Notes under the pieces: model-generated
Told to the model about the DNA's origin: nothing
Databases searched by the model: none
What the model saw: only the letters and a program-made list of their open reading frames with translations
Shown here: positions 5,873-8,383 of the stretch, piece by piece
Numbering within the stretch: the stretch's first letter is position 1
Layout: each line of letters starts with the position of its first letter
Origin: a virus
Taxonomy: Duplodnaviria; Caudoviricetes
Virus record (IMG/VR): IMGVR_UViG_3300044738_000005
Span: 1-64,000 of that record
DNA: 64,000 nucleotides
Reading direction: 5' to 3' (one strand)
Translations under genes and position numbers: made by a program

Positions 5873-5888
5873 ATCTGTCGGGCGGCTG

Positions 5889-5897
5889 TGCTACAGT
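5889..5897 (+). promoter_or_regulatory. Extended -10 promoter TGC-TACAGT of the tRNA operon
   Basis: TGTGCTACAGTT, also found at 8122-8133; 7 nt before ATG 5905. Confidence 0.75.
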
Positions 5898-6019: not shown

Positions 6020-6087
6020 GGGGGAGGCACAGAGCGGCGGGACCCTTGCAAGGTCCTTAGCTGAGGGTGCGAGCCCCTCCTTCTCCA
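6020..6087 (+). tRNA. tRNA-Ala(UGC), truncated D-arm
   Basis: G3:U70, A73; anticodon stem GGACC/GGTCC, loop CTTGCAA; only 13 nt in the D region. Confidence 0.8.
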
Positions 6088-6120
6088 CTGGCCTTCGGGC
6101 CTACATAGCAGCAGCAACCT

Positions 6121-6193
6121 AGGCCTCTAGTCATCTGGGGATGGCGTCGCCCTTACAAGGCGAAAGAGCGGAGTTCGATCCTCCGGGGGCCTA
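6121..6193 (+). tRNA. tRNA-Val(UAC)
   Basis: Cloverleaf; loop CTTACAA; TTCGA T-loop. Confidence 0.92.
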
Positions 6194-6266
6194 TGGGCGG
6201 CAGCACAGTCGCTGGCCCGCGTCTGATAAGCGCGGAGGCTGGGTGCAAGTCCCGGCCGCCCTACCA
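6194..6266 (+). tRNA. tRNA-Ile(GAU), shifted D-arm
   Basis: Loop CTGATAA; encoded CCA. Confidence 0.85.
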
Positions 6267-6272
6267 CGTAGC

Positions 6273-6292
6273 GAACCTTGACAACTGCACAG
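6273..6292 (+). promoter_or_regulatory. rrn-type boxA antitermination-like sequence GAACCTTGACAACTGCACAG
   Basis: Resembles the CTTG/CTTTG-AAAACT boxA of bacterial rRNA leaders and spacers; followed by two hairpins. Confidence 0.65.
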
Positions 6293-6356
6293 CGAAGTGA
6301 TCGCTCCGGCCCGACCGGAGTGCCGGTGGCCCGTGCTGAGGGCGCGACCGGCGCAT

Positions 6357-6427
6357 GCCGCGCTGGCGTAGCAGTAACGTACCGCCTTGCCATGGCGGAG
6401 TCCAGGGTGCAACTCCCTGGCGCGGCT
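6357..6427 (+). tRNA. tRNA-Gly(GCC)
   Basis: Cloverleaf; loop TTGCCAT; U73. Confidence 0.92.
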
Positions 6428-6433
6428 CTTCTT

Positions 6434-6505
6434 CGGGACGTAACTCAACAAGCAGAGGCCCGGTTCTTACCCGGTGTGGCGAGGGTGCAAGTCCTTCCGT
6501 CCCGA
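6434..6505 (+). tRNA. tRNA-Lys(CUU)
   Basis: Cloverleaf; loop TTCTTAC. Confidence 0.9.
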
Positions 6506-6511
6506 CTTCTT

Positions 6512-6582
6512 CAGGGTGTGGTGTAAAGGCGGCATCCGAGGCCTGGAACCTCGTGGATCGGGTTCGATTCCTGACTCCCTGA
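6512..6582 (+). tRNA. tRNA-Pro(UGG), C33
   Basis: C1:G72, A73; loop CCTGGAA. Confidence 0.88.
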
Positions 6583-6585
6583 CTT

Positions 6586-6657
6586 GTCTCGCAAGCGTTG
6601 ACAGACGCGCGCCGGGCTTCCAACCCGGAGGACAGGGGGCGGTACCCTGGCGAGACT
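6586..6657 (+). tRNA. tRNA-Gly(UCC)
   Basis: Loop CTTCCAA; U73; atypical T-loop GGCGGTA. Confidence 0.87.
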
Positions 6658-6663
6658 CTTCGC

Positions 6664-6735
6664 GCCTCGAAGGTGTTGACGGCGGCACGCTTCCTTGGTA
6701 TGGAAGAGGGCTGGGCTCGAATCCCGGTCGAGGCT
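6664..6735 (+). tRNA. tRNA-Thr(GGU)
   Basis: Stem CTTCC/GGAAG; loop TTGGTAT. Confidence 0.9.
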
Positions 6736-6748
6736 CTGCAGGACCCAT

Positions 6749-6820
6749 TGCGGGGTCGTACTAACGGCAAGTGACCAGGCCCTGACCCTGGTGATGTAGG
6801 TTCGAGTCCTACCCCCGCAT
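6749..6820 (+). tRNA. tRNA-Gln(CUG), C33
   Basis: U1:A72; loop CCCTGAC. Confidence 0.9.
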
Positions 6821-6826
6821 CTTCGT

Positions 6827-6901
6827 TCCCGGCTGGTGTCAGCGGAAGCACGGGCGGTTGTTACCCGTCAAGGCGAGGTTCGAGCCCTCGGCTGGGAGCC
6901 A
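6827..6901 (+). tRNA. tRNA-Asn(GUU)
   Basis: Loop TTGTTAC; G73; CCA. Confidence 0.93.
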
Positions 6902-6906
6902 CTTCT

Positions 6907-6989
6907 GGAAGGTGAACGGGGGAAGCCCCCGGCCCGGTTGCTAGCCGGTGCGGCGTTTACGCGCTGGGGATCAGGACCTCCGCCTTCCG
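6907..6989 (+). tRNA. tRNA-Ser(GCU), 8/4 acceptor/T branch with 6-bp D-stem
   Basis: GGAAGGTG/CGCCTTCC; T-stem GGGG/CCTC; long V-arm; G73. Confidence 0.87.
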
Positions 6990-6993
6990 CCTT

Positions 6994-7063
6994 GCCCTCG
7001 CTTGCGGATCAAGCGCCAGGTCTACGAAGCCAGGTCGCGGTGGTTCAACTCCACCCGAGGGCT
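6994..7063 (+). tRNA. tRNA-Arg(ACG), shifted D-arm
   Basis: Acceptor GCCCTCG/CGAGGGC; loop CTACGAA. Confidence 0.85.
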
Positions 7064-7066
7064 CTT

Positions 7067-7139
7067 CGGCTCGCTGACGGACACAGCGCCCGGCCCCCGA
7101 AGCCGGGGCGCGAGGGTTCGACTCCCTCCGGGCCGCCCA
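7067..7139 (+). tRNA. tRNA-Arg(CCG), shifted D-arm, C33
   Basis: Stem CCGGC/GCCGG; loop CCCCGAA; CCA. Confidence 0.83.
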
Positions 7140-7154
7140 CTTCAAGTTCTACCT

Positions 7155-7227
7155 GCCCGTGTAGTGTCACTGGTGAGCACGACGGCTTGTCACGCCGTTA
7201 GGGAGGGATCGTAACCCTCCACGGGCG
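7155..7227 (+). tRNA. tRNA-Asp(GUC)
   Basis: Cloverleaf; loop TTGTCAC; G73. Confidence 0.92.
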
Positions 7228-7229
7228 CT

Positions 7230-7306
7230 GGGGTCGATGCCGAAGTCGCCGAGGTCCGGGGTTGTGATCCCCGCTTCAGAGGGTGCGAGTCCCTCCGACC
7301 CTCCCA
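7230..7306 (+). tRNA. tRNA-His(GUG)
   Basis: Loop TTGTGAT; C73; CCA. Confidence 0.9.
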
Positions 7307-7312
7307 CTTCAT

Positions 7313-7387
7313 AGCGGTCTAGCCCAATCTGGCAGAGGCACACGGTTGAGGGCCGTGACAGTGAGGGTTCGATCCCCTCGGCCGCTA
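7313..7387 (+). tRNA. tRNA-Leu(GAG), short variable loop
   Basis: Leu-type D-loop; loop TTGAGGG; 5-nt V loop. Confidence 0.9.
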
Positions 7388-7397
7388 CTTCTGTCAT

Positions 7398-7471
7398 CGC
7401 CGCCTAGCCCAACTGGCAGAGGCACCGGCTTCAAGTCCCGGCAAGTCTGGGTTCGACTCCCAGGGTGGCGA
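7398..7471 (+). tRNA. tRNA-Leu(CAA), short variable loop
   Basis: Loop TTCAAGT; A73. Confidence 0.87.
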
Positions 7472-7474
7472 CTT

Positions 7475-7550
7475 CGCCGTCTAGCCCAATCTCGGCAGAG
7501 GCACACGGTTCAGGCCCGTGACAGTCTGGGTTCGAGTCCCAGGGCGGCGA
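7475..7550 (+). tRNA. tRNA-Leu(CAG), short variable loop
   Basis: Loop TTCAGGC; A73. Confidence 0.9.
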
Positions 7551-7557
7551 CCTTCAC

Positions 7558-7628
7558 TCCCCAACCTACGGCTAGGCTCCTGGGCTCCAACCCCGGGACG
7601 GTGGGATCGACACCTACTTGGGGGGCCA
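7558..7628 (+). tRNA. tRNA-Trp(CCA), shifted D-arm
   Basis: Loop CTCCAAC; G73; CCA. Confidence 0.85.
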
Positions 7629-7634
7629 CTTCAT

Positions 7635-7722
7635 GGAGAGTGAACTCGGGGATGGCCCGAGGACCGCCTCGAAAGCGGCTCGGGGGTAACACCCAGGGGA
7701 TCGTGCCCTCCGCTCTCCGCCA
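7635..7722 (+). tRNA. tRNA-Ser(CGA), 8/4 acceptor/T branch with 6-bp D-stem
   Basis: GGAGAGTG/CGCTCTCC; T-stem GGGG/CCTC; loop CTCGAAA; G73; CCA. Confidence 0.88.
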
Positions 7723-7727
7723 CTTCT

Positions 7728-7799
7728 GCCCCTGAAGCCTAGACAGCGAGGCGTCCGTTTCGTAATCGGGAGAGCGCGGTGCGTGTCCGTGCAGGGGCT
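7728..7799 (+). tRNA. tRNA-Thr(CGU)
   Basis: Acceptor GCCCCTG/CAGGGGC; loop TTCGTAA. Confidence 0.85.
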
Positions 7800-7805
7800 C
7801 TGCTT

Positions 7806-7880
7806 CCACACCAAGCTGACATGGTTCGTAAGCGCCCGCCTGAAACGCGGGAGGCCGAGGTTCGATTCCTCGGGTGTGGG
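7806..7880 (+). tRNA. tRNA-Phe(GAA)
   Basis: Stem CCCGC/GCGGG; loop CTGAAAC. Confidence 0.92.
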
Positions 7881-7887
7881 CCTTCAT

Positions 7888-7978
7888 CCCGGGAGCAAGT
7901 AAGGCGGGCCGGGACCCGCGCGGCGCTGTAAACGCCGTCCCTCTGGGCTCGGGGTTCGACTCCTACCTCCTGGGACCA
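7888..7978 (+). tRNA. tRNA-Tyr(GUA), atypical D region and weak T-stem
   Basis: Loop CTGTAAA; long V-arm; A73; CCA; possible 8-bp acceptor. Confidence 0.82.
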
Positions 7979-7981
7979 CTT

Positions 7982-8049
7982 GTCGCGGCGGCCGAGGGCC
8001 AGGCCGGATTGCAACCCCGGCCGTGGCGGTGCGATTCCGCCCTGCGACT
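7982..8049 (+). tRNA. tRNA-Cys(GCA), short D-arm
   Basis: Loop TTGCAAC; U73; 68 nt. Confidence 0.85.
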
Positions 8050-8052
8050 CTC

Positions 8053-8121
8053 GCCCGGCGAGCCAGACGCCGCTCGCGCCTCCTAAGCGCCGTGTGCCAG
8101 GTGCAACTCCTGGGTCGGGCT
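8053..8121 (+). tRNA. tRNA-Arg(CCU), short D-arm
   Basis: Loop CTCCTAA; acceptor GCCCGGC/GTCGGGC. Confidence 0.83.
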
Positions 8122-8123
8122 TG

Positions 8124-8132
8124 TGCTACAGT
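8124..8132 (+). promoter_or_regulatory. Internal extended -10 promoter TGC-TACAGT directly before tRNA-Met
   Basis: Same 12-mer as the operon promoter; 6 nt before the tRNA 5' end. Confidence 0.65.
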
Positions 8133-8138
8133 TGCCGT

Positions 8139-8217
8139 CGCGGGTGCCCAGGATGGGGCCGGGGCCTCATAAGCCTAGGCGCGAAAGCTGAAATGGGTTC
8201 GATTCCCACACCCGCCA
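8139..8217 (+). tRNA. tRNA-Met(CAU), initiator-like acceptor, short D-arm, long variable arm
   Basis: C1:C72 mismatch; loop CTCATAA; 15-nt V region with a GAAA hairpin. Confidence 0.75.
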
Positions 8218-8220
8218 TTT

Positions 8221-8291
8221 GCTCCCTTGGTGTAGTGGTAGCACGCGGGCCTTTCACACCCGTAGTCCGGGGTCAGTACCCGGAGGGAGTG
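8221..8291 (+). tRNA. tRNA-Glu(UUC)
   Basis: Loop CTTTCAC; G73. Confidence 0.88.
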
Positions 8292-8307
8292 CCTTCAACA
8301 ACTTCAT

Positions 8308-8383
8308 GGCGCGCTGGTCTAGTGGGCTGGACGCCCGGTTCTCAGCCGGGAAGTGATGGGTTCGATCCCCTCGCGCGCTGCCA
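8308..8383 (+). tRNA. tRNA-Glu(CUC)
   Basis: Loop TTCTCAG; G73; CCA. Confidence 0.92.

Follow-up and report, generated by a model that had tools for sequence, protein, structure and literature searches.

Can a transfer RNA (tRNA) whose D hairpin has moved against the acceptor stem, and which has no U8, still be a working molecule? The question is raised by an array of tRNA genes in an uncultured phage, IMG/VR record IMGVR_UViG_3300044738_000005 (81,737 bases, 66% GC), bases 1-64000 of which were analysed (hereafter, the window). The array lies at 6020..8383 on the + strand and holds 28 genes, with all 20 amino acids represented. An initial annotation had pointed out that six of these genes share a D hairpin starting at position 8 or 9 and a 3-nt linker before the anticodon stem, and had seen in this an alternative core, maintained by selection, that keeps aminoacylation and may evade host enzymes. 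Bacterial tRNAs are taken to have, almost without variation, U8, a 2-nt connector and an anticodon stem of 5 bp, the pyrrolysine (tRNA-Pyl), selenocysteine (tRNA-Sec) and mitochondrial tRNAs being the exceptions. As described here, the D stem does start at position 8 or 9, with the linker base-paired to the variable loop (V); this design, as read from the genes, recurs in phages and in mobile clusters of tRNA genes, where it is seen in hundreds of tRNAs for ten amino acids.

A shifted D stem and a linker paired with the variable loop

The window genes were read arm by arm from the sequence, and single-sequence folds were taken as RNAfold minimum free energy (MFE) structures. On this parse the hairpins are where they had been placed, at position 8 in tRNA-Ile(GAU), tRNA-Arg(ACG), tRNA-Arg(CCG) and tRNA-Trp(CCA) and at position 9 in tRNA-Cys(GCA) and tRNA-Met(CAU), and U8 is found in none of the six. 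Their D regions span 15-17 nt, with 3 nt before a 5-bp anticodon stem. The linker is present in all six, but it is not a loose segment: 26-44 is a Watson-Crick (WC) pair in 6/6, against 17% of long-D tRNAs. These genes keep the 7-bp acceptor, the 5-bp T stem and 7-nt T and anticodon loops, with the exceptions of a U1.U72 mismatch in Ile and an optional 8/4 acceptor/T branch in Met.

The complete form of the Arg family is seen in tRNA-Arg(ACG) (6994..7063, +), which has a 0-nt connector, a 4-bp D stem from position 8 and the 5-nt loop C-G-G-A-U, together with a C-G pair between the first linker base and V4, G.U at 25.45, C26-G44 and C.C between the first loop base and T-loop position 59 (83 bits with model R1). 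Its neighbour tRNA-Arg(CCG) (7067..7139, +; body 7067-7136, encoded CCA) scores 70 bits and has a D stem of 3 bp plus an A.A top pair also present in other family members. In tRNA-Trp(CCA) (7558..7628, +; body 7558-7625, encoded CCA) a 4-bp D stem from position 8 closes a 4-nt loop, 26-44 and 25-45 are both WC, giving a 7-bp anticodon stem in the MFE fold, loop1/59 is C.C and the discriminator is G73. The D stem of tRNA-Ile(GAU) (6194..6266, +; body 6194-6263, encoded CCA), from position 8 with 4 bp and a 6-nt loop, is accompanied by AG instead of GG in the D loop, C26-G44, T-loop G55 and a first loop base A opposite G59; ARAGORN and Rfam both miss this gene. In tRNA-Cys(GCA) (7982..8049, +) the stem starts at position 9 after a 1-nt connector, with 4 bp and a 3-nt loop containing AG; 26-44 and 25-45 are both G-C, and G55 and U73 are present. 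The loop1/59 rule holds for both Arg genes, Trp and Ile and fails in Cys and Met.

The remaining shifted gene, tRNA-Met(CAU) (8139..8217, +), has a fMet-like acceptor with a C1.C72 mismatch. Its predicted MFE structure combines an 8/4 acceptor/T branch, a 0-nt connector and a 4-bp D stem with a 3-nt loop (not Sec-like), and in this model the linker would be wholly paired with the first three V bases, leaving a small GNRA hairpin in the variable loop and layers of 5 + 3 + 4. The simplest reading of a hairpin starting at 9 is that G8 can pair with C65, extending the acceptor; a competing D register with a 1-nt linker exists. Genes of fMet type with GNRA hairpins in the variable loop do recur in other arrays, and CAU tRNAs with a long V arm capped by a GNRA-type hairpin were seen at loci L057, L072, L078, L081, L120, L126 and L136.

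The initial annotation had extended the redesign to tRNA-Ala(UGC) (6020..6087, +) and tRNA-Arg(CCU) (8053..8121, +), with D regions of 13-17 nt overall. Both indeed have a short D region, of 15 nt in Arg(CCU) and a somewhat smaller 12-13 nt in Ala, but neither has the shifted hairpin. The D stem of Ala reaches 2 bp at most and the 3-nt-linker rule is not followed, the gene having G3.U70, A73 and G55. The D loop C-A-G-A-C, G55 and C59 of Arg(CCU) are family-like and it is the top non-training match of the Arg model (36 bits), with imperfect stems and an ambiguous register. Decay of either gene individually is possible. As a separate observation, T-loop G55 accompanies AG for GG in the D loop, as if A18.G55 replaced G18.U55, in Ala, Ile, Gly-GCC, Lys, His, Thr-CGU, Cys and Arg-CCU of the window (6020-8121); in a set of 2143 unique tRNAs, GG is missing in 66/94 with G55 and in 42/2049 without it.

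The fold is best defined in the Arg genes. Genes of 70 nt and of the same form were found by BLAST in Mycobacterium phages Phabba and Shifa, which hold homologues of tRNA-Arg(CCG), and in Ruegeria phage RpAliso, and pattern scans for short Arg genes returned 40 IMG/VR loci, 27 GTDB loci and at least 120 metagenome loci, while a narrower metagenome pattern gave no matches. C8, G20 and the GGA loop were preset in the scan patterns, as was the R/Y class (not the base) at d5, d14, V4 and 59, where d1-d16 number the 16-nt D region. A gap-free alignment with this D region and a 5-nt variable loop comprised 39 sequences less than 85% identical, in which GG and TTC are invariant. The pairs with the highest mutual information (MI) were the standard stems and, beyond these, d2-d12, d3-d11, d4-d10, d16-V1 (26-44), d14-V4 (the first linker base with V4) and d5-59. 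WC pairs are formed by d2-d12 and d3-d11 in 39/39, by d4-d10 in 33/39, by 26-44 in 35 (four pair types) and by d14-V4 in 36, and loop1-59 is CC in 28 and UU in 8. These covarying pairs were reproduced by 73 independent metagenome sequences, which, like the pooled 111, are among the matches listed. In the pooled set WC pairing reaches 111 for d2-d12, 108 for d3-d11, 99 for d4-d10, 96 for d16-V1 and 100 for d14-V4, and d5/59 is CC in 76 and UU in 25, a covariation matching the Y16.Y59 contact of tRNA-Sec.

The compensatory pairs that the initial annotation had suggested looking for are found in homologues from about 140 loci: pairing in the shifted D helix reaches 96.2%, all four pairs show double-sided changes, and the canonical register (U8, 2-nt connector, 10-13/22-25, 1-nt linker), paired at 41.7%, was rejected. 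RNAalifold, unaided, recovers the shifted D stem and 26-44, that is, a 6-bp anticodon stem. In a tree-aware test, on a weak tree of about 48 columns from which the tested ones had been left out, independent pairs favour 26-44 in 7/7 (p 0.016) and loop1-59 in about 6/6 (p 0.03), with a leaning for linker1-V4 (5:0.2, p 0.06); three controls were null. Beyond Arg, 26-44 is WC in 40/48 genes starting at 8, those starting at 9 show linker-V pairing too, frequently with V1 bulged, and loop1/59 is UU in 37, CC in 29 and AG in 24 of 136 shifted genes (90/136).

How would such a molecule be built? In the Arg form, we infer that the four nucleotides equivalent to positions 8-11 are absent and that V bases become the partners of 24 and 25, so that the variable loop would pair with the 3' D-side linker through a WC 26-44, a 25.45 that is mostly G.U or G.A, a bulged V3 and a WC linker1-V4. 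(A plain 7-bp anticodon stem for Arg was rejected, 25.45 showing no covariation.) The anticodon helix would then count 5 + 26-44 + 25.45 + d14-V4, about eight layers, and the 4-bp D stem stacked above it would bring the total to 12, equal to the canonical D/anticodon domain; a 12-layer rule for this domain reportedly goes back to Steinberg et al. 1997. The D stem would occupy the layers that in a canonical tRNA belong to 12-23, 13-22, the 8.14.21 triple and 15.48, its top two pairs replacing the last two, which would explain both the loss of U8 and the Sec-like Y16.Y59 signal. The D loop would retain G18, G19 and the Arg identity base A20, its first base touching T-loop 59, and Cys, many Trp and many Met would adopt a 1-nt-connector version, nearer tRNA-Pyl. 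The L-shape would thus be preserved by helix-length compensation, a principle cited in PMC3299992. The alternative core that had been claimed is supported. What the initial annotation did not see is that the linker, by pairing with the variable loop, makes the anticodon helix longer, so that this is compensation of the Pyl/mitochondrial type and more than a shift of the D arm.

A different geometry can be drawn from the same secondary structure, in which the anticodon stem is Pyl-like, with 6 bp, and the linker-V covariations come from base triples or tertiary contacts instead of a continuous 8-layer helix. It agrees with the lack of MI at the mostly G.U or G.A 25.45, with the linker1-V4 left unpaired by RNAalifold and with the different registers and bulged V1 of the class starting at 9; it sits badly with a linker1-V4 that is strictly of WC type (C-G 71, U-A 26, U.G 5 of 111) and without which the 12-layer total is not reached. 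We consider it unlikely, and it would alter the geometry, not the function.

Working tRNAs, remnants or decoys

Short Arg genes are carried in GTDB by myxobacteria, cyanobacteria, proteobacteria, Lentisphaeria and others. Nearly all loci are in tRNA arrays, every parsed GTDB match being in or near one, and in four bacterial genomes the short Arg gene is a single extra copy next to weaker-scoring, presumably canonical Arg genes. Further cultured carriers are DSS3P8, vB_RpoS-V10, MD18, RcXuper and DSS3_MAL1, Roseobacter phages being among the carriers, and Ralstonia phage RsoM2USA has a partial match. In GenBank the gene is labelled tRNA-Arg without comment in Shifa and Phabba and is unannotated in RpAliso, MD18, DSS3P8 and RcXuper. 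Two short-core Arg genes, L054:2677-2746 and L059:5747-5815, have the rare anticodon GCG.

Other isotypes were counted, as unique sequences, from the neighbouring array genes, outside the pattern selection. The shifted hairpin was found in Met (45), Trp (23), Cys (22), Ala (19), Thr (19), Gln (15), Ile (8), Gly (7) and Val (5), with one case in Asp, and in 0 of about 750 genes for Leu, Glu, Phe, Pro, Ser, Asn, Lys and Tyr. Hairpins with three or more WC pairs at offset 0 or 1, followed by a 3-nt linker, occur in 0.7% of 1387 long-D tRNAs of the same arrays and in 67% of 236 short-D non-Arg tRNAs. A single common ancestor of all shifted isotypes is unsupported, as outside the D, V and anticodon parts the shifted Ala, Arg, Cys, Thr, Gly, Gln and Trp are nearer to canonical tRNAs of their own isotype, a likeness that could also stem from shared identity elements.

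Do these genes still specify amino acids? With the identity determinants listed in Table 1 of PMC9976931, discriminators are isotype-correct in shifted Trp (G73, 23/23), Cys (U73, 22/22), Met (A73, 43/43), Gly (U73, 7/7) and Ala (A73, 17/17), and G3.U70 is retained in 19/19 shifted Ala. An A follows GG in 89/99 unselected Arg genes against 62/236 non-Arg, which fits A20 as the main determinant for arginyl-tRNA synthetase (PMC9976931). In 62 large arrays, a canonical copy with the same anticodon lies beside just 4/190 shifted genes. As identity elements are kept and canonical genes are replaced and not duplicated, the shifted genes probably work in translation; the same two facts lend indirect support to the claim that aminoacylation is kept. 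Most likely, host synthetases would recognise and charge these tRNAs by their anticodon, acceptor and discriminator elements. Core determinants are listed for Leu, Glu, Phe, Pro and Ser, never shifted, and for Asp, shifted in one case. In the window, the eight short-D genes are the sole Ala, Ile, Arg, Trp, Cys and Met tRNAs of the array and correspond to the codons that the phage uses most for Arg, Ile, Cys and Trp, and they would serve as its only tRNAs for those six amino acids during infection.

We thus have good confidence that the compact-core genes specify working tRNAs in which helix-length compensation keeps the L-shape, and hold their decoding function to be likewise highly probable; stacking, charging and decoding are all inferred from sequence here. 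Several observations weigh against this interpretation. Cys, Ile, Gln and Trp have listed core determinants and yet show the fold. In the window, C73 of Arg(CCG) and G4-C69 of Ile deviate from the identity elements, and C33 in the former and U1.U72 in the latter are further oddities. Single-sequence folding of Cys, Ala and Arg(CCG) favours other structures. Ala and Arg(CCU) of the window are without homologue support, targeted pattern scans found no homologue with the exact fold of the window Met, and patterns aimed at the Ile and Met forms gave only canonical-D genes; with no close relatives of the phage found, the covariation test does not extend to direct orthologues of the window Ile, Ala, Met and Arg(CCU). 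Linker1-V4 is WC in just 9/13 unselected Arg genes of the same length, and conservation at the sites fixed in the scan patterns is biased, C-G versus U-A switches having been left free. In the Anabaena trn operon, whose tRNAs are known to be charged, all parsed tRNAs have canonical D arms, and no charged homologue was found in the literature searched.

Could the genes be decayed, or their hairpins be chance products of a GC-rich genome? Rfam and ARAGORN mostly miss them, odd bases such as C33 and U1.U72 occur, and shuffling each window D region gives P of only 0.04-0.08 per gene. Against this stand the compensatory changes in every helix over 111 dissimilar Arg homologues, the 0.7% background, the retained identity elements and the lack of redundant canonical copies. 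For the family this explanation is refuted, and overall we regard it as extremely improbable; the covariation and the recurrence in ten isotypes bear out the claim of selection rather than decay. Folded, conserved mimics that act off the ribosome, whether as decoys or as sponges, against host anticodon nucleases or defence proteins that sense tRNAs would in turn be restricted to mobile arrays, as observed, and bacterial hosts do hold canonical Arg genes elsewhere; furthermore, some allo-tRNAs are charged and yet unused in translation (PMC5389517). Nevertheless, all 472/472 shifted genes have a 7-nt anticodon loop with R37 and none a stop anticodon (U33 being partly imposed by the parser), shifted genes fill exact gaps in the 20-amino-acid set and match the most used Arg, Ile, Cys and Trp codons, and A20 is kept specifically in Arg, all of which makes the decoy explanation quite improbable.

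If these are working tRNAs, why would the core be favoured? The most likely advantage, which is a guess, would be that these tRNAs resist the host enzymes recognising the canonical core, or are handled differently by them, and escape from host tRNA nucleases or modifiers, as had been proposed, is plausible, if held tentatively. Published escape of phage tRNAs from VapC/PrrC maps to the anticodon loop (PMC10264068), and RelE, suggested earlier as a test nuclease, is unsuitable for testing it because it cleaves ribosome-bound mRNA, not tRNA (PMC8421152). Drift in fast-evolving mobile tRNAs may instead have led to a neutral alternative, functional and with no anti-defence advantage; this is a real possibility that falls somewhat short of an even one. 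It would account for the many variants (0-/1-nt connectors, 3-7-nt loops), for the alternation of canonical and shifted forms among arrays and for the location of known nuclease-escape changes in the anticodon loop (PMC10264068), though less readily for the fact that the core was not seen among the housekeeping genes of the genomes checked or for the strong isotype bias, which, with the restriction to arrays, fits constraint as well as advantage. Under synthetase constraint, neutral drift accounts for the data about as well as escape does. The broadest proposal would see here a third natural core, widespread and undescribed, that serves ordinary amino acids and resembles tRNA-Pyl in its lower and tRNA-Sec in its upper half, arisen separately in about ten isotypes within mobile arrays and charged by the host but unseen by its core-reading enzymes (tRNA nucleases, U8- and D-loop-modifying enzymes, sensors), that is, a structural phage counter-defence; taken as a whole, it appears doubtful.

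The array and its phage

The proteins encoded in the window (portal, prohead protease, HK97-type capsid, tape measure, terminase, Pol A, RNR, ThyX and amidase) indicate a siphovirus-type phage. Scans with the capsid and neighbouring proteins and BLAST of the array found no close relatives, and tRNAs of Streptomyces, Gordonia and Mycobacterium phages match weakly, a hint at a possible actinobacterial host. ARAGORN recovers 15 of the 28 array genes and the Rfam tRNA family (RF00005) 14; of the eight short-D genes ARAGORN picks up Met alone and RF00005 matches 0/8. Rfam matches to tRNA-Sec (28 bits, cut-off 47) and DUF3800-X were rejected as under the cut-off. An extended -10-like motif, TG-TGCTACAGT (5887..5897, +), upstream of the array is a candidate promoter, although a sigma-70 consensus scan did not pick it up; its exact 11-nt repeat at 8122-8132, directly before tRNA-Met, suggests a second candidate, for Met-Glu-Glu. 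The largest spacer of the array, 6267-6356, contains two GC-rich hairpins and no tRNA by parser or model.

Other array members are unusual in different ways. Three Leu tRNAs (GAG, CAA, CAG; 7313-7550) have a 5-nt variable loop, hence class I bodies, and resemble Streptomyces and Gordonia phage genes. The irregular tRNA-Tyr(GUA) (7890-7975), missed by ARAGORN and Rfam, has a connector of about 8 nt, a 5-bp D stem abutting a 6-bp anticodon stem, possibly an 8-bp acceptor and a weak T stem. The Ser tRNAs at 6907-6989 and 7635-7719 combine 6-bp D stems and small loops (Sec-like) with ATC-type T loops; an RpAliso gene that is not annotated shares 82% identity with Ser-CGA, which is also matched by unannotated stretches of cluster C mycobacteriophages. 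C33 replaces U33 in Pro-UGG (6512-6582), Gln-CUG (6749-6820) and Arg-CCG (7067-7136), and T loops lacking TTC, with intact stems, are found in Gly-UCC (6586-6657), Thr-GGU (6664-6735) and Glu-UUC (8221-8291). Elsewhere, long-arm Cys and Lys tRNAs occur at loci L004, L074, L075 and L077, and the tRNA-Ile(GAU) of cluster C mycobacteriophages (L002:4938-5011 and L003:5548-5621) has a different odd core, with a 5-bp D stem, a 2-nt linker and a 6-nt variable loop.

Comparison with known systems

Among the closest parallels is tRNA-Pyl, above all that of the Methanomethylophilus alvus type, which has no connector and a 4-nt D loop (PMC7609411). Common to both are the 0-/1-nt connector, the 4-bp D stem with a 4-5-nt loop, an anticodon stem longer than 5 bp, the D arm moved toward the T loop and, in the phage class starting at 9, a 3' anticodon-stem bulge. 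Unlike tRNA-Pyl, which has the anticodon CUA and lacks G18/G19 and TPsiC, the phage genes have sense anticodons, G18/G19 (or A18 with G55) and a TPsiC-type loop; their linker has 3 nt and their variable loop 4-5 nt, against 1 and 3, and the stem extension would reach up to three layers. No synthetase, dedicated or PylRS-like, was found among about 40 phage open reading frames scanned, a part of all those present. Mammalian mitochondrial type I tRNA-Ser(UCN) likewise has a longer anticodon stem and shorter connectors and keeps G18/G19 and TPsiC (PMC7609411), whereas the present genes belong to phage and bacterial arrays, cover ten isotypes, would depend on bacterial ribosomes and synthetases, and are shifted further than in this tRNA or in tRNA-Pyl. 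The same contrast in setting and isotypes holds for the helix-length-compensated mitochondrial tRNAs reportedly described by Steinberg, Leclerc and Cedergren in 1997.

With tRNA-Sec, in which C16.C59 and U16.U59 occur (PMC7609411), the family would have in common a D stem filling the 8.14.21 and 15.48 layers and a Y16.Y59 contact, seen in the phage family as covariation. The 13-bp acceptor branch, 6-bp D stem, long V arm and UCA anticodon of tRNA-Sec contrast with the 7/5 branch (except in Met), 4-bp D stem and short variable loop found here. The window Met, with its 4-bp D stem, can fold 8/4 in the MFE model as allo-tRNAs do (PMC5389517). Thus the compact core would work like those of tRNA-Pyl and the mitochondrial type I tRNA, while belonging to neither, nor to tRNA-Sec.

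Synthetic suppressors with 7-10-bp anticodon stems were reportedly described by Bourdeau et al. in 1998. Later, synthetic Pyl-scaffold ZtRNAs with a GG/T-loop contact worked in E. coli, perhaps through GlyRS and GlnRS (Sakamoto and Hayashi 2018, PMC6337575); these are man-made, with a 6-bp stem and a 3-nt variable loop, whereas the phage genes are natural and shifted further.

The setting, a dense, near-complete and horizontally moved tRNA set, is shared with phage tRNA clusters and bacterial L-arrays, and the published arrays were annotated with ARAGORN or tRNAscan-SE (PMC8421152, PMC10264068). As standard finders mostly miss the compact form (15/28 genes by ARAGORN here), phage tRNA sets are undercounted, which biases studies of codon compensation and nuclease escape. 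In the searchable literature this fold was not found described, either for phages or for bacterial arrays, though an earlier description may exist. A design long thought limited to pyrrolysine and mitochondrial tRNAs would here be natural, large-scale and devoted to ordinary amino acids, in elements dependent on bacterial synthetases and ribosomes. Its cultured carriers, such as cluster C Mycobacterium phages and Roseobacter phages, make the question of why phages carry tRNAs a testable one, and genetic-code engineering, a field that prizes cores of the Pyl type, has in these families a natural source of scaffolds.

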